The notes under the pieces: model-generated
Seen by the model: the letters and a program-made list of their open reading frames with translations, nothing else
Databases searched by the model: none
What the model was told of the DNA's origin: nothing
IMG/VR virus record: IMGVR_UViG_3300029880_000003
Coordinates: 66,978 to 130,977 of that record
Reading direction: 5' to 3' (one strand)
Length of the DNA stretch: 64,000 bases
Source of the DNA: a virus
Lineage: Duplodnaviria > Heunggongvirae > Uroviricota > Caudoviricetes
Program-made: the position numbers and the translations under genes
In this document: piece after piece, positions 22,537 through 54,684 of the stretch
Layout of the letters: each line of letters opens with the position of its first letter
Numbering within the stretch: position 1 is the first letter of the stretch

Positions 22537-24387
22537 CTACAGGGTTCGACATTTATGGTCATCGAATTGAAGAATCTTGCTTATCAAATCCTTACAGCTT
22601 GTATAAACCGCATCGGTAACGAACCATTCCCGAAGTTTCTTCTGTCGTTCCTTATACTCTCTGCAAGCGATATTCTTTCTGATTGCATGTTCCATGAAGA
22701 GGTGCGGCGATCTCAGGCAATCAAGCTTGTCATCCTTCCTGAACAACCAACAGAAGACCTCTCCATCGTCAAGCAACCCATTTGGATTCTCCTCTCCTAG
22801 AAACCAATGCTCGCACGCAGCATAGAAATCTGGGAGCAGGAAAGTGTATTTACCTCGCACATTCAGCTTGCCAGACTTGCATTTCTTGATGATGCTGTCC
22901 TTGATGCTTCTCAAATGAGATTTCGCATACTCGTCATTCAGCAAATCTGGATACAAATCGATTGATTCTTGAAAAGCAGTCTTGTTCGTGTTATACGGTG
23001 TTACACCAAACGCATCCTTGATATTCTTGACAGAAGAGCAGAGGTTCTTAAGCTTGCCAACGGACTGTCCAGATATCTCAGCAATCTCATCGTCTGTGAT
23101 ATCAGTCAAACTCTGCAACATCTGATAGTTGATTGTCGCGTCCTTTATCCTGTCTTCCTCAAGGTTCGTGTACCCAGCAGAGCAATTGTACTTCTTGTAG
23201 TTCTCCTTGTACTCATCCCATGAGTCATAGTATTTGTACATCTTGAACTGACTTTTGCAGAAGACAACCTGTATATCCTCTGCGATGATATCATGCTCTT
23301 TGCCGTAGATATCCTTCAGAACAGGAGAGCATCCGTGTTCCTCTATGAACTTGACGAAATCGAACACACCGAGCAATCCCTTCACCCAGGGGAGCCGAAC
23401 CATCCTGTTCTTACCCATGCATGGAAGCATCATACCAGCACCATCTGTGTGGGTAATCGGCACATGCTTGTTTTGACGCTTGATGGAGTAGTCTGTCTCA
23501 TCAACCAAATCGTATGTACCTAAAACATCAGTCTCGAAATCGTCAACCACAATCGTCTTGTCGATATCGAACTCTTCCCAAACATCTGTTGCGGAGTTAG
23601 CCAAAGCCATGTAAGCCAGATGCTTGTTCGGGTTGTTGCCGCCCTTTGCGTTGATCTTGTCGATTGTCAATCCGCACATCAACGACCTCTCGTACTTCTT
23701 CCACACGGACTCTCTCACGAACACGCACTTCTTTGTTCTGATCTGTCCAGCAGAAGAGGTGAAGTACACGTACTTCTCTCCCTCGAACATGAACCCATGG
23801 TAAATCAAGTCCTTGATGACATCGAAGTAGTATACCTGAATAACCATGAAGTCCTTGCAAAGCTCATCTTGCTCGGCTCCGATTGTCCTTGTGAAGTAGG
23901 AGTCAAAAACAGAGATGATGTTCTTATCGGCGATAGCCTCATCACGCAGCTCTCTGATATGATGTGTACCATTTGACCTTATGTTAGCCTCAACCTTGTT
24001 AGCCAAGAGAAGAAGAAGGTTGTCTTTTGCTTCCTTTGCCTTTTTGTTCTTCATGCGAACAATGTCCTTCTGCTTGGAGTACCTATGCCCAAGCTCGGTC
24101 ATCATCTCTGCATCCTCGCCGTATCCAGAGAAGTCGAACTCGTTCTTCGCGACAGACTTCAAATCATCGTCTGAGACACCGTATTCGCGCAGCTTCTTCT
24201 TGATATCCCCAAGCCCCATGACGGTTCGCTTGACTCTGCCGTTCGACCCCTTGAAGGTGTAGCCGTTAACAAGCTGGTTTCTCTCGGATCTCAACCTATG
24301 GTTCTGCATGTGCAGGTTCTTTTCCTCGTTGCTGTAGAAATCAGCAGTGTCAAAGCAATAAATCTGAATTTGCTTGTCTAATGCCAT
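22537..24387 (-). CDS. large hypothetical protein (possible nucleic-acid enzyme/replication; function unknown)
   Basis: 616-aa ORF; possible AEP-like DxD (IVVDDFETD) but no confident family assignment. Confidence 0.45.
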   Translation of the reverse strand: MALDKQIQIYCFDTADFYSNEEKNLHMQNHRLRSERNQLVNGYTFKGSNGRVKRTVMGLGDIKKKLREYGVSDDDLKSVAKNEFDFSGYGEDAEMMTELGHRYSKQKDIVRMKNKKAKEAKDNLLLLLANKVEANIRSNGTHHIRELRDEAIADKNIISVFDSYFTRTIGAEQDELCKDFMVIQVYYFDVIKDLIYHGFMFEGEKYVYFTSSAGQIRTKKCVFVRESVWKKYERSLMCGLTIDKINAKGGNNPNKHLAYMALANSATDVWEEFDIDKTIVVDDFETDVLGTYDLVDETDYSIKRQNKHVPITHTDGAGMMLPCMGKNRMVRLPWVKGLLGVFDFVKFIEEHGCSPVLKDIYGKEHDIIAEDIQVVFCKSQFKMYKYYDSWDEYKENYKKYNCSAGYTNLEEDRIKDATINYQMLQSLTDITDDEIAEISGQSVGKLKNLCSSVKNIKDAFGVTPYNTNKTAFQESIDLYPDLLNDEYAKSHLRSIKDSIIKKCKSGKLNVRGKYTFLLPDFYAACEHWFLGEENPNGLLDDGEVFCWLFRKDDKLDCLRSPHLFMEHAIRKNIACREYKERQKKLREWFVTDAVYTSCKDLISKILQFDDHKCRTL

Positions 24388-26430: not shown

Positions 26431-27344
26431 AACTACTTCAAAGAATAGATACACAATGTCTTATTACATAGATATAACGTCTTATTGATCGCACCTATTA
26501 TCTACATACGGTATAGCTCACAATATTCTCACCAGTATGGATACACATCAAACCCAATAGTTTTCTTTATCATCAGATATTGTCGAACTGGTATATGACC
26601 TGGGATTATATGTCTTTTAAAGCATACTGGCTCCTTGCTTGACACGGGCTTCCATACTGCATACGTTTCATTTATTTCATCAGCTTATGTTGTCACGATA
26701 TTGTTATTATGTAGATAGTTCATCTCTATATTGTTGTTATGTAGTTGATATGTAGTCAATTAAATATAGTCTCTTTTCGGCTTGCTGCCTGGGTTTACGA
26801 GGTTTTCCTTGCTACCTGGGCTTTTTTGTTTTCGTTGGATTTATTCGTAGGTCATGTAGTAACTGTGTAGCTGTCATGTAGTCGTGTTTTCAGACAAGTT
26901 TTTAGGTGGGCGAGGGGTTGCTTGGATGGGTTTGAGCGGTGGTCTATGGGTTGAATCTTCGGTAGTGATTTAGGCGATATAGATGTTTTGGGTTAGGAGT
27001 GTTTAGGTGCGATTGATGGTTGGGTTGGTTTGGTGAACGGTTTGGATACGTGATCTGGATGTCTTGGGTATGGCTTGATTTTTAGGTTCGTTATACGTGT
27101 GTGAAACACGTGGTGGCGTTTGCCAAAATCAAATAGCGTTCAAAAGTTTTAAACAGGGGTAGGGTGCTACCTTATGCAGTTTTGTAACATTGAATTCTAA
27201 TTCCTATAGGTTTACTAGGATATAAATTTTTCGAACATGTGTTCGTGTTTTTTTGGGACTCCTGGAACAAAAAAAATTTGGGGGTGTTACAAAAATTTTT
27301 TGTAATTGTGTTTCATTATAAGGGGCGGCGCTGGTTAATAAAGA

Positions 27345-27431
27345 ACTACTTATAAAATATAATTATAAAATATAACTATTTTACTTATAAAATATAACTA
27401 TAAAATATAATTATAAAATATAACTATCTAC
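27345..27431. repeat. AT-rich tandem repeat (TATAAAATATAAYTA)n, candidate DNA unwinding element
   Basis: ttataaaatataattataaaatataactattttacttataaaatataactataaaatataattataaaatataactatc. Confidence 0.75.
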
Positions 27432-27440
27432 CTAAAACCG

Positions 27441-27565
27441 ATACCCTAAACTCATAGCCTAACGCTATCATTCCACCAACCCATAGCCTACGCCTATCAA
27501 TTCCCTATTCCATAGTCCTACACTATCAATTCTCAAACCTATAGCCTCACGCTATCAATTAACCA
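27441..27565. repeat. four iteron-like direct repeats ATAGCCTACGCCTATCAATTC with period about 29 bp
   Basis: atagcctaacgctatcattcc / atagcctacgcctatcaattcc / atagtcctacactatcaattct / atagcctcacgctatcaattaa. Confidence 0.7.
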
Positions 27566-27844
27566 AACTAAACTATTCGCCCACGTTATCGAACTTATAA
27601 CAAACTCAAATACCACGCTATAAGCCGCTCTAAGCCGTTCTAAGCCCCTATTTCCGATTCTAGGCAATAAGCACCCTACCTAACCCGTTATCGACCGTTA
27701 CACGCCATAGTACCAGGTCAAACCCTATATTTAGGTTGTCTAACTATCCATTCATAGTCTATAGCTATCAATACCATACTGAATAACCTATTGATATATC
27801 CTTATAGCTATGGTATTCGCGCGTACTATAACGTATGGCACCTA

Positions 27845-27950
27845 TTAGTTAACCATAGCTAACTTACTGTTATAGCCTGAACCTATAACCAACTATAAGC
27901 GTAGCCTATAGCTAGGATCCATAGTTAACCATGGTTAACTTATACAATGC
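27845..27950. repeat. two copies of 21-bp palindromic element TAGTTAACCATGGTTAACTTA
   Basis: tagttaaccatagctaactta and tagttaaccatggttaactta. Confidence 0.6.
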
Positions 27951-28502
27951 GAACGCGCCAAACCATAGGGCGAACGCCTGAAACCTCGTTTAACGTGTCT
28001 AGAATCCATCCTAAGTCCATATAACGCTAAACGTGAACGCTTATAGCTTAAAGCACTAAACGCGCCTGAAACAGGCTTAGAACAGTCTTATATGCGATTG
28101 TGAAGAAACTGTGAACGAAAACAGTTTGGTACTAGACAACTAAAAACGAATGCGTAATATATAAAGCGTCCCAAGGGGGACGGGGCGAGCGCCGAACGAT
28201 TGGAGGCTTTAGGCGCGAAGTCAATCGAATACATGCGAATACTACGCTTATATAGTGGTAGTCTGGTTTATTGCAAATCGCAATGAATCAGGAGGGACAA
28301 CTATATAGGACGTATAGGCAAAAACTATAAAACTAGTTGGCGGTATCATTTGCCGTAAAACGTGGAGTAGTTAGTAACCGAAACCGCTCGCAACTTGACA
28401 ATCGAATAAATGCGCACCTACCCGCGCGGTAGGGCATGGGATTCATTCTCTTACAACGTGGGCTATCTGCTAGGGCGTATAACCTAGTGGTTAGGATTTA
28501 TC

Positions 28503-42213: not shown

Positions 42214-42337
42214 ATAATCGAGGGAGATAATATTCTCCCTCTTTTTTTGTTATATTAAACTTAGTCAAACTACTTGCCAGCTACATAAACGAGTGTTACA
42301 ATTATTGTATAGAAAAGGACAGAAGCTAGAAAGGGTG

Positions 42338-43138
42338 TTCAACATGGCTGATTATGCTCCGCAAATTAACTATCAGTACAAGTCCAACGTCATCTCGTTC
42401 GAGGATCTTAAGAGCAAGAAGGATGAAGAGAACACTAAGGCAGCAGATGAGCCTAAACGTATCAGTTATACCGCTGGCAAGTCCACTGAGGTATATGCTT
42501 TCCGTACCGAAGAAGAGATCAAGGCTATGATCGATGTGTACGATAAGCATATTGATGAAGCTGCCAATGAAGATCAAAGACGTGTAGCATGTCGCAACAA
42601 GATGATGTTCGTTGTCGGTTTGAATATTGGTATTCGTGTAAGTGATTTGGCATCGTTGAAGTATTCTTTCTTCTTCGATAAGAAACCCAATGGAGAATAT
42701 GCATTCAAGAAGTTCTATACTTTGCAGCCTAAGAAGCAACGCAAGAGCGGTAAGTTCGTTAAGCTGTTCTTCAATCAGACTGTTCGTGTTGCTATTGAAA
42801 ACTACATTGCAGAGTATCCGTTTGAAAGTCTTGATGAATATCTATTCACTTCTAGAGAAGGAGACAACAAGCCATTGGAAACACGTTCTATTTGGCGCAT
42901 TATCAAGCGTACCGCGAAGGAAGCTGGTATTAATAAGAACATTGGATCGCACAGCCTTCGCAAGACATGGGCTTATCGAGTTTGGAGCAGCGCCGAAGAT
43001 AAGAATAAAGCTCTAGTTATGTTGATGCGCTGCTTTAATCATTCCTCTGCTGTTGTTACGATGCGCTACATTGGAATCATGGATGATGAAATCGAAAAAA
43101 TGTATAATAGCGTTGAGCTAGGTCTTGATTATTTATAG
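42338..43138 (+). CDS. tyrosine recombinase / phage integrase family (short, XerC/D-like)
   Basis: catalytic region HSLRKTWA…LMRCFNHSSAVVTMRYI (R, H-x-x-R, Y). Confidence 0.65.
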   Translation, partial: FNMADYAPQINYQYKSNVISFEDLKSKKDEENTKAADEPKRISYTAGKSTEVYAFRTEEEIKAMIDVYDKHIDEAANEDQRRVACRNKMMFVVGLNIGIRVSDLASLKYSFFFDKKPNGEYAFKKFYTLQPKKQRKSGKFVKLFFNQTVRVAIENYIAEYPFESLDEYLFTSREGDNKPLETRSIWRIIKRTAKEAGINKNIGSHSLRKTWAYRVWSSAEDKNKALVMLMRCFNHSSAVVTMRYIGIMDDEIEKMYNSVELGLDYL

Positions 43139-45596: not shown

Positions 45597-45672
45597 GCGC
45601 CAGTAACTCAGGGGACAGAGTTCCGATCTTCTAAATCGGGGGTCGAGTGTTCAAATCACTCCTGGCGCTCCA
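45597..45672 (+). tRNA. tRNA-Arg (anticodon UCU)
   Basis: hand-folded cloverleaf: acceptor GCGCCAG/CTGGCGC, D-stem ACTC/GAGT, anticodon stem CCGAT/ATCGG loop CTTCTAA, T-arm GAGTG-TTCAAAT-CACTC, encoded CCA. Confidence 0.8.
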
Positions 45673-45674
45673 AT

Positions 45675-45748
45675 GCCTGATTAGTTTAATGGTAAAACAA
45701 ATCACTTGTAATGGTTAGTCGAGCGTCCGATTCGTTCATCAGGCACCA
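45675..45748 (+). tRNA. tRNA-Thr (anticodon UGU), T-loop slightly non-canonical
   Basis: acceptor GCCTGAT/ATCAGGC, D-stem GTTT/AAAC, anticodon stem AATCA/TGGTT loop CTTGTAA, encoded CCA. Confidence 0.55.
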
Positions 45749-48360: not shown

Positions 48361-49521
48361 ATGGGTATTTATCTAGATGAAGCTGCTACCACTAAGCCAA
48401 GCCCAGAAGTAATCAGCGCTATGATGCCGTATCTATCTGAGAAATGGCATAACCCTTCTTCGCTATACAGCTGGGCTTCTGATGTCTCTAAGGATATTTC
48501 AAAGGCGCGTAAGACTGTTGCTGATTTTATCAATGCAGAAGAAGATGAAGTGTTCTTTACATCTGGTGGTAGTGAAAGCAACTGTTGGGCTATTCAAGGT
48601 TTCGTAACACATCGTTCTGCAATCGAGGAACTACCTTGCATCATCACTACAAACATCGAGCATCATTCTATTATGGAATGCACTGCAATGATGAATATGC
48701 TGCCATGTCTTGTTTGGTATGTTGGTGTTGATGAGTATGGCAACGTTGATATCGAAGAGCTAGAAGAAGCTCTTAAGTGCATGACTAAAGAGACTAAACC
48801 TAGTAATGTTCTAGTGTCTATTGGAATGGCAAACAATGAGATCGGCACTATTCAAGATATCAAGAAGCTTTCTGAGATCATTCATTCATATGGCGCAATC
48901 TTCCATACTGATGCAGTGCAAGCTTTCGGGCATATTCCAATTGACGTAGAGGATATGGGTATCGATATACTTAGTGCAAGTGGGCATAAGATTGGAGCGC
49001 CAAAAGGTATTGGCATTCTTTACAAGCGCAACGGTACTGAAATCAACCCTCTTATCTATGGTAGTCAGATGGATGGTATGCGTGGTGGAACCGAGAATGT
49101 TCCTTATATCATCGGTATGGCTAAGGCTGTTGAGCTTATTGAGCGATATGCAAAGCCTGATATGTGTCAGAGAATTGCATACACACGAGATTATTTTATT
49201 GACAAACTAGAGAGCATCGGTTGCAAGCTCAATGGTTCTCGTGAGAATAGGTTGCCCAACAACATCAATGTGACTTTACCGCATGGTCTTAACGGCGAGT
49301 CTATGCTGTACTGCATGGATTTATGTGATGTGTATATCAGTACGGGAAGTGCTTGCAATTCTAAGTCTATCGAGCCGTCACCTGTATTGAGTGCAATTGG
49401 CTTAGGCGATGATGCTTACAATTCTATTCGCATCACTTTCCCTGTTGGCATCACAAAGGAAGAGATTGATGAGGTTGTGAGCGAAATGGATAGGCAGATT
49501 AAGATTCTTGTAAACAACTAA
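48361..49521 (+). CDS. cysteine desulfurase (class V aminotransferase, IscS/NifS-like)
   Basis: PLP-lysine motif SASGHKIGAPKGIGILY; active-site Cys region STGSACNS. Confidence 0.7.
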   Translation: MGIYLDEAATTKPSPEVISAMMPYLSEKWHNPSSLYSWASDVSKDISKARKTVADFINAEEDEVFFTSGGSESNCWAIQGFVTHRSAIEELPCIITTNIEHHSIMECTAMMNMLPCLVWYVGVDEYGNVDIEELEEALKCMTKETKPSNVLVSIGMANNEIGTIQDIKKLSEIIHSYGAIFHTDAVQAFGHIPIDVEDMGIDILSASGHKIGAPKGIGILYKRNGTEINPLIYGSQMDGMRGGTENVPYIIGMAKAVELIERYAKPDMCQRIAYTRDYFIDKLESIGCKLNGSRENRLPNNINVTLPHGLNGESMLYCMDLCDVYISTGSACNSKSIEPSPVLSAIGLGDDAYNSIRITFPVGITKEEIDEVVSEMDRQIKILVNN

Positions 49522-49549: not shown

Positions 49550-50722
49550 ATGCTTATTAACGGTGAACGAGCGCTGGCTTATACTGTGACGATTGATAGT
49601 ATCACGCCAATCGAAGGCGCAGACAATATTGAGCTTGCTCATGTAGGTGGCTGGTGTGTAATTATTCGCAAGCAGGAGTATAAGCCTGGTGATATGGCGG
49701 TCTTCTGTGAGATTGATTCCAAGCTGCCAGAGAAAGAATGGTCTGAGTTCTTGCGTCCTAAGAAGTTCAAGGTGAAAACCTATCGACTTGGTAAGTTTAA
49801 AGTTATCAGCCAAGGATTGCTCCTACCTATGAGTATTCTTCCAGAAGGTAATTATGAGATTCACACTGATGTAACCAAGACACTTGGCATTACATACTCA
49901 GTCGTAGAAGACAATGTACGTAAAGCTAAGACCAATCCGAATGCAAAGTACGACAACATGTGCGCACGAAACAAGAAGTTATCTCAGAAGCGTTGGTGGA
50001 AGTGGTTGATGAAACGTCTGTGGGGTCGCAAGCTGCTGTTTGCTTTCTTTGGTAGCAAGAAAGATAACCCAAAGAAGTTTCCTGAGTGGATTAAGAAGAC
50101 CGATGAAGATCGCATTGAAAATTGCATGTGGATGCTCGACAACAAAGATCCGTTTGTATGTAGCGAAAAATTGGACGGCACCTCGTCTACGTTCTTTATT
50201 GACTATGCAAAGTCGAAGCGTAAGCCAGAGTTCGGCGTATGTTCCCGCAATGTGCGTCAGGTAGATATGAATCAAGATACATACTTTGATTGCGAGAATG
50301 TCTACTGGGAGATGGCTTTTAAGTACAATATTGAGGATGCGCTGAAGAGCATCGCCAAGGAGTATAATGTAGACCGTGTTGTTCTTCAAGGCGAGACTTA
50401 CGGCGAAAAGGTTCAAGGCAATCCATACAAGTTAGATGAACGCAGGTTTGCTGCATTTAATCTAGTTTTCAATGGTGAGCGACTTGGCTCTCTCGAAGCA
50501 AAGAACATCCTTGATAAGTATGATATTCCATTTGTGCCTATCATTGATGAGAATTATATCTTGCCAGATCGTGAAGGTTTTGAGGAGTTCAAGAAGTCTG
50601 CTGATGGCATGAGTACAATCAATAAACAGACTAGGCGAGAAGGCTTTGTTTATCGTAGTCAGGACGGCAAGCAATCGTTCAAGTCTATCAGTCGTAAGTT
50701 TCTCTTAAAGAAGAAGGAGTAA
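49550..50722 (+). CDS. ATP-dependent RNA ligase family protein (nucleotidyltransferase)
   Basis: motif I KLDGTS, motif IV-like EGFVYRS; N-terminal extra domain. Confidence 0.5.
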   Translation: MLINGERALAYTVTIDSITPIEGADNIELAHVGGWCVIIRKQEYKPGDMAVFCEIDSKLPEKEWSEFLRPKKFKVKTYRLGKFKVISQGLLLPMSILPEGNYEIHTDVTKTLGITYSVVEDNVRKAKTNPNAKYDNMCARNKKLSQKRWWKWLMKRLWGRKLLFAFFGSKKDNPKKFPEWIKKTDEDRIENCMWMLDNKDPFVCSEKLDGTSSTFFIDYAKSKRKPEFGVCSRNVRQVDMNQDTYFDCENVYWEMAFKYNIEDALKSIAKEYNVDRVVLQGETYGEKVQGNPYKLDERRFAAFNLVFNGERLGSLEAKNILDKYDIPFVPIIDENYILPDREGFEEFKKSADGMSTINKQTRREGFVYRSQDGKQSFKSISRKFLLKKKE

Positions 50723-50725
50723 ATA

Positions 50726-51694
50726 GTGAACAGCACGAAGCCAGTGCTGACGATGATGGTAGGCTTGCCTGGAAGCGGCAAGTCTACCTATTCATATCAG
50801 TTGGCAAAAGAAACCAACGCTACTGTATTTAGCTCTGATGAATTACGTAAAGAAATGTTTGGAGACATCAACGACCAGGCTCATAATGTTGAGGTGTTTA
50901 ACGAACTTCATAAGCGAATTAAGAACTGTTTAAAGTCTGGCGGCAATGCTATTTATGATGCATGTAATATCTCTAGTAAAAGACGCAGGGCGTTTTTGCA
51001 AGAGTTAAATAAAATTGATTGCGTCAAGGAATGTATTGTTATAGCAACGCAATTTTTGAAATGCATTTATTATAACAATAAGAGAAATAGAAAAGTACCG
51101 ACTTATACAATACATAGAATGCGTGAGCAATGGAATACTCCTTATTGGTTTGAAGGATGGGATAAAATAGACGTACATTATTGTGACAATATTATATTTG
51201 AAAATCCACTTACGTTTATGCTGGCATATGCTTCATTCAATCAAGATAATTCACATCATACGTTGTCACTTGGAGAACATTGCTTTAAGACCGCTAGTTA
51301 TATAGAAAAGGGAAGCCACCCTTATGCAGTAAGCTCACTGTTGAGTTTGATTATCGCGGCATGTATTCACGATTGTGGCAAACCATACGTTAAAAATTTT
51401 AAAAATGCCAATGGAAAACCAACAGATGAGGCGCATTACTATAGACATGAAAATGTTGGAGCATATGAAGCCTTGTTCTTTGATTGTCCAGTCGAAAACG
51501 ATGGACTGCATTCAATAAGAGCCAATATACTTGACGTTTCTGTTTTGGTAAATCTACATATGCAGTCATATTATTGGGAACGTGAGCAAGGTCACAACAA
51601 AGAAAGATTGTGTAACAAATACAGAAAATTGTGGGGAGATACGTTATATGACGAAGTGATGAAATTACATGAAGCAGATAAAGCGGCGCATTAA
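50726..51694 (+). CDS. polynucleotide kinase (P-loop) fused to HD-domain phosphohydrolase
   Basis: Walker A GLPGSGKST; HD domain HH…ACIHDCGK. Confidence 0.55.
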   Translation: MNSTKPVLTMMVGLPGSGKSTYSYQLAKETNATVFSSDELRKEMFGDINDQAHNVEVFNELHKRIKNCLKSGGNAIYDACNISSKRRRAFLQELNKIDCVKECIVIATQFLKCIYYNNKRNRKVPTYTIHRMREQWNTPYWFEGWDKIDVHYCDNIIFENPLTFMLAYASFNQDNSHHTLSLGEHCFKTASYIEKGSHPYAVSSLLSLIIAACIHDCGKPYVKNFKNANGKPTDEAHYYRHENVGAYEALFFDCPVENDGLHSIRANILDVSVLVNLHMQSYYWEREQGHNKERLCNKYRKLWGDTLYDEVMKLHEADKAAH

Positions 51695-52228: not shown

Positions 52229-52408
52229 TAGCAAGGGAGAGTTGTGGATGTCTTATGTGATAATTACACTACTCGTAATTCTTGGGATTACATCTGTTGC
52301 CTTATGTTATGCTTGTTACGTTGTATCTAGACGTTGTTCTAGAGAAGAAGAAAAGCTGGAACGTTATGAGAATGACGATTCAGGAAATGTTTGAAGAAAG
52401 GTAAGACG

Positions 52409-52948
52409 ATGATTCAAGTTAGGCAAGGAGTCTTTGAGACTAATTCATCTAGTACCCACTCGATTTGCATTCCAAAGAAGTGTGATAAGATCATCAATCA
52501 TGTCGATTTCCGTATTGGCGAATATGGATGGGAGAATGACGAAGCTGATCCAGCATCGTATTTGTATACTGGCATTCTGTATGCATACAAAAAGGATGAA
52601 GCTCAAGAGCTTATTAATGATATTGCCAACTTCCTTGTCAACAATGATATTAGCTTTACTTTTGAAAAACCTAAGTATGACGAATACAATCGTCTTTCGT
52701 ATGAACAAGGTTATATTGACCATGGGTATGAGCTATGTGAGTTTATTGAATATATTTTAAATGACGGAGAGGCGTTTCTGCGTTATTTGTCTGGTGGTAT
52801 TGTGTATACTGGCAACGATAATCAAGATCCGCAACCGAGCGGTTGTGATATTTGTGATGAGGATTATTACGATTACGATCTTGATAAGTATGTTCCGAAC
52901 CCATACCACGACATTGAGAACTATGAATATTTTTATAAGGGAAACTAA
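52409..52948 (+). CDS. hypothetical protein, paralog A with conserved N-terminus MIQVRQGVFETNSSSTHSI
   Basis: 20/22 N-terminal residues identical to next ORF, rest diverged; Tyr/Asp-rich C-terminus. Confidence 0.5.
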   Translation: MIQVRQGVFETNSSSTHSICIPKKCDKIINHVDFRIGEYGWENDEADPASYLYTGILYAYKKDEAQELINDIANFLVNNDISFTFEKPKYDEYNRLSYEQGYIDHGYELCEFIEYILNDGEAFLRYLSGGIVYTGNDNQDPQPSGCDICDEDYYDYDLDKYVPNPYHDIENYEYFYKGN

Positions 52949-52961
52949 CTAGGAGAATGCT

Positions 52962-53351
52962 ATGCTACAAGTACGTCAAGGTGTTTTTGAAACGAATTCT
53001 AGTTCAACCCATTCAATTACAATTGTTCCGCAATCTGAGTTCAATGAATGGAAAAACGGGGACACTTACTTTAATGATGGATGGTGGTATAATAGCATCG
53101 ATCCAATTAAGGACAATACATTTATTACAAAAGACGAAGCTATTTCGCTTGTAATGACGAGTGATTATCTTCCTGAGAGTAATCCATATGAAATGTCAGA
53201 AGAAGAACTTGACGAGTTGTTCGCTGATGAATATAGTATTTATTCGTATGAGAAGTTTTTGTATGATAGCTATCTTGAAAGCTATGTAAAACACTGCACT
53301 ACGGAACACGGTGACAATATTGTTGCCTTTGGACAATACGGACATGATTGA
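52962..53351 (+). CDS. hypothetical protein, paralog B with conserved N-terminus MLQVRQGVFETNSSSTHSI
   Basis: AGGAGAA RBS; see paralog A. Confidence 0.5.
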   Translation: MLQVRQGVFETNSSSTHSITIVPQSEFNEWKNGDTYFNDGWWYNSIDPIKDNTFITKDEAISLVMTSDYLPESNPYEMSEEELDELFADEYSIYSYEKFLYDSYLESYVKHCTTEHGDNIVAFGQYGHD

Positions 53352-54256
53352 TGGGAGATAAGATGAAAACCCTTGGTAAGTACAAGAACGGAAATTACCG
53401 TGTGGCGATGCTGGTTGACGGTTCCAAGATTCGTTACAATGATCTTGATTTCTTTGAGCCAGAAAAACCAGAATCGATTGATCTTAAGATTACTAACCGT
53501 TGCTTTAGAGGCTGTAGTTTTTGCCACGAGAATTCAACCTGCGATGGCAAGCATGGAGACATTCTTAATCTTCCGTTCTTAGATACCATGTTGCCATATA
53601 GCGAAATTGCAATTGGCGGTGGGAACGTACTTCTTCATCCAGACTTGATTCCGTTTCTTGAAGGTCTTAAAGAACGTAAGCTCATTGCAAATATGACCGT
53701 CCATCAAAACGACTTCATGGCTAACAGTGATTTTCTTAAGTATCTTGTTGAAGATAAGTTGATTTATGGGCTTGGTGTTTCTCTTAATTATGTAGACGAT
53801 GAATTCATCGAGGTTATCAAAGAGTTTCCCAATGCGGTAATTCACGTTATCAATGGCGTTGTATCAGTATCTGAGCTAGAGAGCCTTGCAAATAACAACC
53901 TTAAGATTCTTATTCTTGGATACAAAGAATTTAGGCGTGGCAAGGATCTATATAATATTATCGGAGATGATATCGAACACGATAAGTCTGAACTATATGA
54001 AGCGTTGCCAACGATTGTCAGCAATGGTTGGTTCGACTGCGTGAGCTTCGATAATCTAGCAATCAAGCAGCTTGATCCTAAGCGTTTTATGAGTGAAGAT
54101 AAATGGAAGTCTTTTTATATGGGAGACGATGGCGCATTTACTATGTATATCGATGCTGTTGAAAGAAAGTTTGCCAAGAGTTCTGTATCTACAGAACGTT
54201 GGGAGATTACAGATGGTATTAAGGAAATGTTTAACAAGGTGAGGAGTGTTGCTTAA
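53348..54256 (+). CDS. radical SAM enzyme (CxxxCxxC; viperin/QueE-like minimal radical SAM, family unassigned)
   Basis: ITNRCFRGCSFCHE cluster-binding motif; Gly-rich SAM-binding stretch EIAIGGGNVLLHPD; likely start ATG 53362. Confidence 0.6.
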   Translation: MMGDKMKTLGKYKNGNYRVAMLVDGSKIRYNDLDFFEPEKPESIDLKITNRCFRGCSFCHENSTCDGKHGDILNLPFLDTMLPYSEIAIGGGNVLLHPDLIPFLEGLKERKLIANMTVHQNDFMANSDFLKYLVEDKLIYGLGVSLNYVDDEFIEVIKEFPNAVIHVINGVVSVSELESLANNNLKILILGYKEFRRGKDLYNIIGDDIEHDKSELYEALPTIVSNGWFDCVSFDNLAIKQLDPKRFMSEDKWKSFYMGDDGAFTMYIDAVERKFAKSSVSTERWEITDGIKEMFNKVRSVA

Positions 54257-54684
54257 TGGAAGTATGTAAAATTTTTCTTAGTGGTGGAATGAGTGGTCTT
54301 ACCCAGAAGCAGCAATGGGCTTGGCGAAAAGAAGTTGAGAAGGAGCTGACTGAGTTCAGGTATGGAACTAGGGTGAAGCCAGAGTTCTTTAATCCATGCT
54401 TGTACTACAATGTAGATGAGGATTATCACAAGACCGAGAATGAACATTTCGAGTTTGATACCTATAATCTACGCAGATCTGATTTGGTTATTGTGAACTT
54501 CAATGCTCCTAATTCTATTGGCTCAGCAATGGAGCTGATGTTGGCGAAAGAGCTGCACATTCCTATCATTGGTCTTAATGAGAACAAGCGTAAGCTTCAC
54601 CCGTGGTTAGAGGTATGCTGCAATCGTATCTGCGATGATATAGAAGAACTCGTAGATCATGTGGCTGCTTGCTATTTGAATTAA
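54256..54684 (+). CDS. nucleoside 2-deoxyribosyltransferase-like (NDT/DNPH1/Rcl fold) protein
   Basis: N-terminal IFLSGGM and NSIGSAMELMLA resemble NDT motifs; ATGGA overlap with upstream gene. Confidence 0.45.
   Translation: MEVCKIFLSGGMSGLTQKQQWAWRKEVEKELTEFRYGTRVKPEFFNPCLYYNVDEDYHKTENEHFEFDTYNLRRSDLVIVNFNAPNSIGSAMELMLAKELHIPIIGLNENKRKLHPWLEVCCNRICDDIEELVDHVAACYLN

Follow-up and report, generated by a model that had tools for sequence, protein, structure and literature searches.

Why should two adjacent phage genes encode proteins that begin almost identically, differ completely thereafter and stand directly in front of a gene for a radical S-adenosylmethionine (radical SAM, rSAM) enzyme? 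The question is raised by positions 52409-54684 of a 64,000-nucleotide stretch of tailed-phage DNA (the window; IMG/VR record IMGVR_UViG_3300029880_000003). An earlier note, made from the letters alone, had proposed that the two proteins (A and B), the rSAM enzyme, a protein resembling nucleoside 2-deoxyribosyltransferases (NDT-like) and an IscS-like cysteine desulfurase farther upstream form one undescribed module. Our analysis revealed that A and B share a near-invariant start, here termed the cassette, because both belong to a large, unstudied protein family that accompanies one radical SAM enzyme. Four tightly packed genes on the plus strand make up the 52409-54684 segment, with the following features:

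52409..52948, plus strand: A, an A-type cassette protein of 179 aa from ATG 52409, the free-standing form of a domain that is fused N-terminally to rSAM in many phages
52409..52486, plus strand: cassette of A, residues 1-26, MIQVRQGVFETNSSSTHSICIPKKCD, the sole stretch of A that aligns to the B-type and C2-type profiles
52962..53351, plus strand: B, a B-type cassette protein of 129 aa with the conserved tail ..IVAFGxYGxD
52962..53039, plus strand: cassette of B, residues 1-26, from BLASTP and the codon comparison with A
53363..54256, plus strand: radical SAM enzyme, 297 aa from ATG 53363, with a single CX3CX2C motif
53369..53437, plus strand: small N-terminal three-stranded beta-domain of rSAM (KYKNGNYRV..DGSKIRY), from AlphaFold2 (AF2) strands and conserved residues
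53501..53524, plus strand: CFRGCSFC, the three cysteines binding the [4Fe-4S] cluster (C52, C56 and C59, invariant in family alignments)
54256..54684, plus strand: NDT/DNPH1-like protein, whose start overlaps the rSAM stop; a lineage-specific neighbour outside the conserved core

The ribosome-binding site (RBS) AAAGG precedes ATG 52409 of A, and AGGAG precedes ATG 52962 of B. Sizes of 185 and 129 aa had been given for the two proteins; the latter stands, whereas A measures 179 aa and reaches 185 only when read from the upstream TTG 52391. The rSAM frame is open from TTG 53348, but its start is most likely ATG 53363, because an RBS (GGGAGA) lies in front of this codon and homologues begin there with MKxLG. 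In TAATG at 54254-54258, the stop codon of rSAM and the start codon of the NDT-like gene overlap, in agreement with the translational coupling described before.

The near-identical start of A and B is real and conserved at the protein level. A begins MIQVRQGVFETNSSSTHSICIP and B begins MLQVRQGVFETNSSSTHSITIV, with 19 identities over the first 22 residues instead of the 20 counted in the earlier note. BLASTP confined the similarity to residues 1-26 (19/26 identical, E 7e-11) and returned no match past residue 26, so that the remainders of the two proteins show no similarity. Of the first 22 codon pairs, 8 are the same in both genes, 11 show synonymous and 3 non-synonymous differences (43/66 nucleotides identical), and no DNA-level repeat was detected between the two gene starts. 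Synonymous change at 11 of 22 codons together with the missing DNA repeat therefore indicates purifying selection on the peptide. Moreover, when the window was translated in six frames, the pattern FE[TS]NSSS was found at these two starts and nowhere else, compared with 0.0 times in 200 shuffles.

The pairing of cassette and rSAM genes extends far beyond the window. Our samples comprised 84 rSAM loci and 99 cassette-centred loci with flanks of 8 kb, covering 33 rSAM clades, and the 3,128 neighbouring open reading frames (ORFs) were clustered. A cassette ORF lay beside rSAM on the same strand in 82/84 rSAM loci, usually as two genes (A-type and B-type) and at most as six; in gut-phage loci the B-type gene is the paralogue directly upstream of rSAM. 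By clade, the cassette family was located within 5 kb of rSAM in 30/33, and the next most frequent family, an AAA_33/HD kinase, in 8/33. Starting from the DNA pattern of the cassette, an rSAM gene was found within 8 kb in 68 of 99 stretches; many of the others are truncated by the edge of the locus. In the phage-record collection, the closest rSAM relatives were present in 15 Lak megaphage and 9 Microcystis phage records, and relatives of A in exactly those 24, adjoining rSAM. For example, gp130 of Microcystis phage Ma-LMM01 begins MLSIQVRQGVFETNSSSTHS and ends FFYKGN as A does, with gp128 as its rSAM, and in Lak-A1 five tandem paralogues follow rSAM, 5/5 with the cassette at their start. The pair is thus carried by gut phages, Lak megaphages, Ma-LMM01 and, as described below, Thermus and Rhodothermus phages. 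The rSAM and the cassette proteins are an obligate functional unit, often one polypeptide. The earlier note had read the shared N-terminus as a conserved element with a functional or recognition role, which is supported, and had asked for co-occurrence across phage genomes; the motif does track the rSAM gene. The combination is also undescribed, as was supposed: no Pfam or NCBIfam family was found for the cassette proteins, the one matching PHROG has no function, and the literature search returned no mention of a TNSSS-type motif or of the rSAM-cassette pairing. Literature on radical SAM enzymes in combination with Ma-LMM01, phiYS40, anti-defence or RNA repair likewise contained nothing relevant.

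Three sampled loci deserve separate mention. A contig binned as Methanobrevibacter, possibly by a binning error, holds six cassette paralogues and an rSAM gene (L101). A locus of Eubacterium plexicaudatum ASF492, a cultured mouse-gut isolate, contains three paralogues and rSAM at the edge of a 238-kb contig and may be a prophage (L156). At L176, seven cassette paralogues are found with no rSAM within 8 kb.

How general is the cassette itself? A logo of 294 unique proteins gave the consensus [IV]-R-x-x-[VT]-F-E-T-N-S-S-S-x-H-[SAT], in which R(-4) and H(+8), both outside the search pattern, were 100% and 99% conserved, and a Phe stood at residue 9 or 10 in 289/296 cassette proteins. The bodies behind the cassette fell into 18 similarity clusters among 300 unique proteins from the sampled loci. 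They are acidic, with a median isoelectric point (pI) of ~4.2-4.7, and contain 13-19% aromatic residues. An exhaustive profile search matched 5,756 clusters at 50% identity, nearly all from residue 1; a word-indexed protein search with a 44-residue cassette profile returned short fragments only and no domain fusions. When the A-type was compared with the B-type and with the Cys-rich C2-type, only residues 1-26/28 aligned (hhalign probability 99.3 and 98.4, respectively). Neither A nor B matched any family in Pfam, NCBIfam or PADLOC; both match PHROG 28997 ("unknown function"), B through residues 2-25 only. A-type homologues form more than 1,000 clusters at 90% identity, with H17, Y51 and D137 strongly conserved and D104 and H105 (GYIDH, GNDN) present in most members and variable in the fused clade. 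The A-type partner domain has no match among solved folds. In the model of A, residues 1-20, although the most conserved segment, have a predicted local distance difference test score (pLDDT) of 69-70, below most of the body.

The C2-type proteins (200-320 aa) were seen in L087-L135 (e.g., L099 5445-6407 and L115 2837-3793) from Christensenellaceae and Clostridia bins, usually as the sole paralogue beside their rSAM. They carry a conserved Cys-rich segment, CCHRYFCEG.LDDC.CGF, possibly a metal or Fe-S site. One 288-aa protein (P0389) has two cassette matches, the better at residues 166-225, and maybe consists of tandem cassette units.

The product of 53363-54256 belongs to the radical SAM superfamily. 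As the earlier note had recognized from CFRGCSFCH, the motif CFRGCSFC is present at residues 52-59, its three cysteines are invariant in alignments A2, A3 and A10, and the protein has the partial TIM-barrel fold common to solved rSAM enzymes. It scores 26.9 bits against PF04055 (cut-off 29.5), fused relatives of the same family reach 31.3-53.7 bits, and it matches phrog_16999, "Fe-S oxidoreductase" (E 1.6e-44). Homologues amount to more than 7,000 clusters at 90% identity. Their position before the third Cys is Met, Phe or Tyr, and a minority, e.g., P0150 and P0175, have a CX7CX2C motif (CYGNGSGLCPMC); the Phe in the window enzyme, earlier taken as a viperin-type sign, is therefore no indication of such an enzyme. 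The enzyme has 5 Cys in 302 aa, three of them in the motif and none conserved downstream of the core, and SPASM/twitch auxiliary-cluster cysteines are absent from its sequence and from the family alignments. In the AF2 model, strands 8-14, 17-22 and 27-30 form a three-stranded N-terminal sheet, and a beta-hairpin and a helix occupy residues 267-300. The N-terminal beta-domain, with conserved Y12, N14, Y17, D24, G25 and R29, is kept in the fusions.

No known family claimed the enzyme. Its best NCBIfam matches (MoaA, W_rSAM_matur, WgkB and NrdG2) all lie far under their cut-offs. MoaA, whose auxiliary Cys are missing here, reached 23.6 bits (cut-off 231) with a match to the core only. For viperin, PADLOC pVip gave 13.7 bits (E 0.008), no viperin model was among the NCBIfam matches of the window rSAM, and viperin_w_prok reached 23-38 bits on fused relatives with a cut-off of 180. 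The family hidden Markov model (HMM) score or close structural match, combined with queuosine-pathway partners, that would mark a QueE was not found, nor was the combination of HMM score and partner with a C-terminal RVxG[YF] glycyl-radical motif that would mark NrdG or a glycyl-radical activating enzyme; the classification as an ordinary QueE or NrdG that the earlier note had named as a counter-argument was not obtained. A glycyl-radical activase with a glycyl-radical partner was rejected, as no Gly is invariant across cassette types and the similarity to PFL-AE and NrdG is weak. Klebsiella phage KP15_135, considered as a family member, is a separate SPASM-type rSAM. For a PqqD-like recognition element (RRE) of the kind that binds peptides that ribosomes synthesize and that are modified post-translationally (RiPPs), Pfam and NCBIfam searches of rSAM, the fusions, A and B matched only the rSAM core, and the N-terminal domain of rSAM consists of no more than a three-stranded sheet. 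A sequence search against PDB chains with rSAM and the NDT-like protein yielded nothing useful. Beyond superfamily membership, the enzyme shows no defining feature of viperin, QueE, NrdG, MoaA, the anaerobic sulfatase-maturating enzymes (anSME) or the SPASM- or RRE-dependent RiPP maturases. It is a single-cluster enzyme structurally related to SPASM/twitch-type peptide maturases.

The most distant relatives show that cassette and enzyme are frequently one protein. In Salmonella phage Arash, gp146c (OQ632216; L184 3491-4921) contains an A-type domain (MYLTQIRYGFATNSSSSHS...GYIDH...GGNDN) fused to rSAM and aligns to both Ma-LMM01 gp130 and gp128. It is annotated as a "methyltransferase", and no methyltransferase family was detected in it; the Arash paper does not discuss gp146 (PMC10585845). 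A profile search with the most distant rSAMs gave 80 further IMG/VR loci, in 71/80 of which an N-terminal TNSSS ORF lies beside rSAM or is fused with it. The fusions, found in 30/80, represent 26 unique proteins of 456-525 aa, ordered as cassette domain, beta-domain (..KNGNYW..G.K.R..) and rSAM core, colinear with the gene order in the window. Rhodothermus phage RM378 (p106 and p108) and Thermus phage phiYS40 (YS40_162 and YS40_161) have separate genes with degenerate hairpins (IRFGLS-TNSSSSHS and VRLTSM-TNSSSAS, respectively), and their rSAMs lack the beta-domain and yet TNSSS is retained. TNSSS is the universal core of the cassette, since it is kept in the fusions and in these two phages. 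Furthermore, the C-terminus of A, YFYKGN (52936-52948), aligns with the first strand of the beta-domain, KYKNGNY (53375-53395; alignment A11), and fused proteins have a single such copy, at the junction. This resemblance looks like the scar of an ancestral fused gene that split.

What, then, do the partners do? With slightly less than even confidence, we favour a reading in which A, B and rSAM are parts of a radical SAM enzyme of two domains that is split, its cassette-bearing partners being interchangeable, because stable 1:1 fusions run across a whole clade. The system would be specific to tailed phages, with rSAM (53363-54256) as the putative catalytic subunit. A would be a free-standing version of the N-terminal domain that many phages encode within the rSAM polypeptide, and B probably a shorter, derived paralogue that kept the first 26 residues only. 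In these 26 residues, a predicted beta-hairpin ([IV]R-x-x-VFE) leads into the invariant loop T-N-S-S-S-x-H-S. The cassette may dock the partner onto rSAM, probably onto the small N-terminal beta-domain, and could thereby place the TNSSSxHS loop at or near the active site. One rSAM could be served by 1-7 alternative partners, because the cassette is attached to many dissimilar acidic, aromatic-rich bodies, and these bodies would most likely set the target of the enzyme. Docking, loop position and the specificity role of the bodies are all inferred from sequence patterns.

The hairpin occurs in three states that would fit docking in trans on the beta-domain: VFE in separate genes whose rSAM has the beta-domain, G[FLH]A in fusions, and a degenerate form where the rSAM lacks the beta-domain. 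An earlier version, in which the VFE hairpin simply went with the beta-domain, was abandoned, as fusions retain the beta-domain yet read GFA. The three-state pattern itself is suggestive only, because it coincides with the borders of clades and because GLA is also read in two unfused forms (L206 and L217).

Several observations weigh against the split-enzyme reading. The VFE/GFA contrast, tracking clade boundaries as it does, may reflect ancestry, and the unfused GLA forms depart from it. A few rSAM loci, e.g., L036, have no nearby cassette gene, and the bodies have no recognisable binding domain. To our knowledge, it would be unusual for the active site of a radical SAM enzyme to receive an invariant loop from a partner subunit. 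A loop that is itself the substrate would account for this invariance no less well.

The last point leads to a second account, possible but on balance doubtful, in which the enzyme is a maturase and the cassette proteins are its clients: rSAM would read the hairpin like a leader peptide and modify the TNSSSxHS loop by oxidation, epimerisation or cross-linking of Ser/Thr, providing a protein-derived group that the differing bodies use, with modification in cis in the fusions. It would account for one rSAM per 1-7 cassette proteins, for a loop that is invariant on bodies without mutual similarity and for the modest pLDDT at the conserved start of A. The modified residue could complete an active site made up of Y51, D137 and, in most members, D104 and H105; the structural neighbours of rSAM favour this account as well. 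On the other hand, it would be atypical of a maturase to be stably fused with its substrate throughout a clade, each fusion locus having a single cassette. The rSAM also lacks the SPASM/twitch cysteines used by peptide cross-linking and anSME-type enzymes, and no RRE or PqqD-like domain was detected.

The closest known systems are RiPP maturases with a small partner (SuiB and SkfB; PqqE/PqqD; MftC/MftB/MftA). The weak NCBIfam matches are mostly to maturases (WgkB, MftC and ScmF), the small partner has a gene of its own in some genomes and is fused N-terminally in the rest, and a conserved N-terminal element heads otherwise variable proteins. Unlike in those systems, the phage enzyme has no SPASM/twitch cysteines, no PqqD/RRE fold or family was detected, and all family-model scores lie far under the cut-offs. 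The partners are folded proteins of 95-400 aa instead of short peptides, the same conserved element sits on at least 18 dissimilar bodies, and the family resides in phage genomes and in phage- or prophage-like metagenome bins. The logic of one enzyme for many sulfatases in anSME matches the maturase account, as does that of a RiPP maturase serving several precursors, the anSME case albeit with TNSSSxHS as the motif in place of (C/S)xPxR. In contrast to anSME, auxiliary clusters and SPASM cysteines are missing here, the clients are dissimilar outside the cassette, and enzyme-client fusions are common.

Could the A-type domain be an enzyme of its own? We consider it improbable that A-type proteins are metal-dependent hydrolases or transferases acting before or after rSAM on a small molecule, probably a nucleotide, with His, Asp, Asp and Asn binding metal, the Ser-rich loop binding phosphate and the cassette lying in the active site of A. 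Viperin, for comparison, is found paired or fused with CMPK2. Fusions of consecutive enzymes are common and fusions are documented here; H17, D137 and, mostly, D104 and H105 (GYIDH, GNDN) resemble a metal site; and in the lineage of the window a nucleoside-transferase-like gene is translationally coupled to rSAM. However, B-type, C2-type and other paralogues keep the cassette without the putative metal ligands, the fused clade varies at D104 and H105, and no viperin, MoaA or QueE model reached its cut-off. The present system also differs from viperin and pVip in that its partner is not a kinase.

A still less likely explanation, and the one from which the analysis started, is that the paralogues, rSAM, the NDT-like protein and the IscS-like protein act together as one module, which would modify either nucleotides or nucleic acids, or would serve to deplete immune signals or nucleotides. 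Its assessment requires the upstream neighbours, among which a YopX protein was also noted:

48361..49521, plus strand: NifS/IscS-like cysteine desulfurase (Aminotran_5 237.7 bits); context, outside the core
49550-50722, plus strand: RNA ligase (PHA02142 OB domain), one of the RNA-repair pair; context and lead, not part of the module
50726-51694, plus strand: AAA_33 kinase and HD phosphohydrolase in one fused gene, the other of the RNA-repair pair; context and lead, not part of the module

The genes form one tightly packed block on the same strand, in which the rSAM stop overlaps the NDT-like start, and the rSAM/NDT-like/IscS arrangement is conserved in the phage group of the window itself (L003, L005-L022 and L027). 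A phage-encoded desulfurase could plausibly help load Fe-S clusters. The product of 48361-49521 has the class-V aminotransferase fold (Aminotran_5 cut-off 21.5) and scores 384.3 bits against the NifS equivalog (cut-off 530.75) and 276 against IscS (cut-off 643), both falling short. The NDT-like assignment of the window protein is weak (PF05014, 22.2 bits with a cut-off of 28.8; DUF4406, 18.5 with a cut-off of 22; phrog_355, E 8.9e-6; and, by eye, a G-S-x-x-E-L motif in SIGSAMEL), and is backed by a 45% identical orthologue in L003 with PF15891 and PF05014 matches on record. Outside this group, the arrangement dissolves. Within 5 kb of rSAM, the NDT-like gene is found in 5/33 clades and IscS in 2/33. 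Neither was found in the Lak genomes, which carry the pair; the NDT-like gene had no match in any phage record, those of Ma-LMM01-type phages included, and only one IscS match in the phage collection came from a Microcystis phage. The NDT-like and IscS genes are lineage-specific neighbours, so that of the proposed four- or five-gene module a core of two components is left. PADLOC defence and anti-defence models gave noise-level matches only, no thymidylate-synthase-like or other hypermodification gene was seen in the scanned parts of the window, and nothing was found in support of the nucleotide-depleting or DNA-hypermodification role once considered. The radical SAM isomerase gp53 of phage M6, which acts in thymidine hypermodification (PMC8989533), is likewise a phage rSAM among genes of nucleic-acid metabolism, near a pyridoxal phosphate (PLP)-dependent enzyme and a P-loop kinase. 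Unlike at the M6 locus, neither an aGPT-Pplase nor a dUMP hydroxymethylase was seen in the scanned parts, and the PLP enzyme here is a NifS/IscS-type desulfurase that is not conserved with the pair. A gp53-type enzyme was rejected as a different rSAM lineage.

The RNA-repair genes recur more widely. In the window, 0.7 kb separate the RNA ligase and AAA_33-HD set from A, which follows it downstream. An RNA ligase, an AAA_33 and HD kinase-phosphatase or a Thg1-like gene lies within 8 kb of rSAM in 10/33 clades, with Thg1 directly beside rSAM in two loci and with cases in L057, L075-type loci, L184 and L185. In Arash, the RNA ligase is three genes downstream of gp146c, and in RM378 a gene annotated as "probable poly A polymerase" adjoins the locus. 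As a weak lead, these neighbours may mean that the pair is functionally linked to tRNA repair, or only that nucleic-acid genes cluster here as they usually do. The structural neighbours of rSAM point to a possible peptide or protein substrate, and the recurrent RNA-repair neighbours to a possible RNA substrate.

A conserved N-terminal tag on variable acidic bodies is also the pattern of the capsid-targeting sequences of T4 internal proteins, and the pI of the cassette bodies conforms to it. That the cassette is a signal apart from rSAM, for capsid targeting, secretion or degradation, is nevertheless scarcely credible, given the near-obligate linkage to rSAM, the frequent fusions to it and the protein list from mass spectrometry of Arash particles, which includes gp143 and gp149 and lacks the fused gp146 (PMC10585845).

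Other features place the window among phages. The ORF at 22537-24387 on the minus strand encodes a single-subunit RNA polymerase of the YonO type, for which Pfam gave a weak RdRP match. It is 50-54% identical to YonO of SPbeta (50%) and to that of Clostridium phage D-1873, and the window therefore comes from an SPbeta-like phage of Bacillota. The nearest contig was an IMG/VR genome of 133 kb. Bacillus phage records were not among the tblastn matches of rSAM or A, and the phage collection contained no near-identical DNA. At ~27000-28000, coding moves from one strand to the other and the sign of the GC skew is reversed, with a minus-strand block and a plus-strand block on either side. A scan for promoters and terminators gave counts no higher than in shuffled sequence. 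A small ORF at 52248-52394 (MSYVIITLLVILGITSVALCYACYVV...), ending 14 nt before A, resembles a single-pass membrane protein. Two further features were recorded:

42293-43138: tyrosine integrase
45597-45748: adjacent tRNA-Arg(TCT) and tRNA-Thr(TGT)

The pair consists of a radical SAM enzyme and a dedicated partner or client family; its partner, however, lies outside the solved folds, and the tagging logic is undescribed. With more than 7,000 rSAM and ~5,756 cassette clusters, it is among the larger phage gene families without a description, and it is found in phages of Bacillota, Bacteroidota, Cyanobacteria, Thermus, Rhodothermus and Salmonella, among them the Lak megaphages. Current annotation conceals it, as "methyltransferase" for gp146c and "Fe-S oxidoreductase" for the family are uninformative or wrong labels. 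For enzymology, it adds a single-cluster, maturase-related rSAM whose obligate partner domain may be part of the same polypeptide or a separate protein. For phage biology, it offers a testable handle on acidic early-region proteins that have an invariant N-terminus as their only common feature. Since cultured phages carry the system (Arash as a fusion, Ma-LMM01, phiYS40, TMA and RM378, in addition to the Eubacterium plexicaudatum ASF492 locus), genetic and biochemical tests are feasible. We tentatively suggest that the cassette may be a portable rSAM tag on at least 18 dissimilar bodies, so that either all tagged proteins would carry a new, protein-derived modification put into the TNSSSxH loop by rSAM or they would act as interchangeable specificity subunits that guide one radical enzyme to differing host targets. 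In the latter outcome, host proteins or damaged tRNAs could be the targets, given the RNA-ligase, kinase-phosphatase and Thg1 neighbours. If true, either outcome would define a new class of phage host-takeover or counter-defence proteins and a new organisation of radical SAM enzymes.

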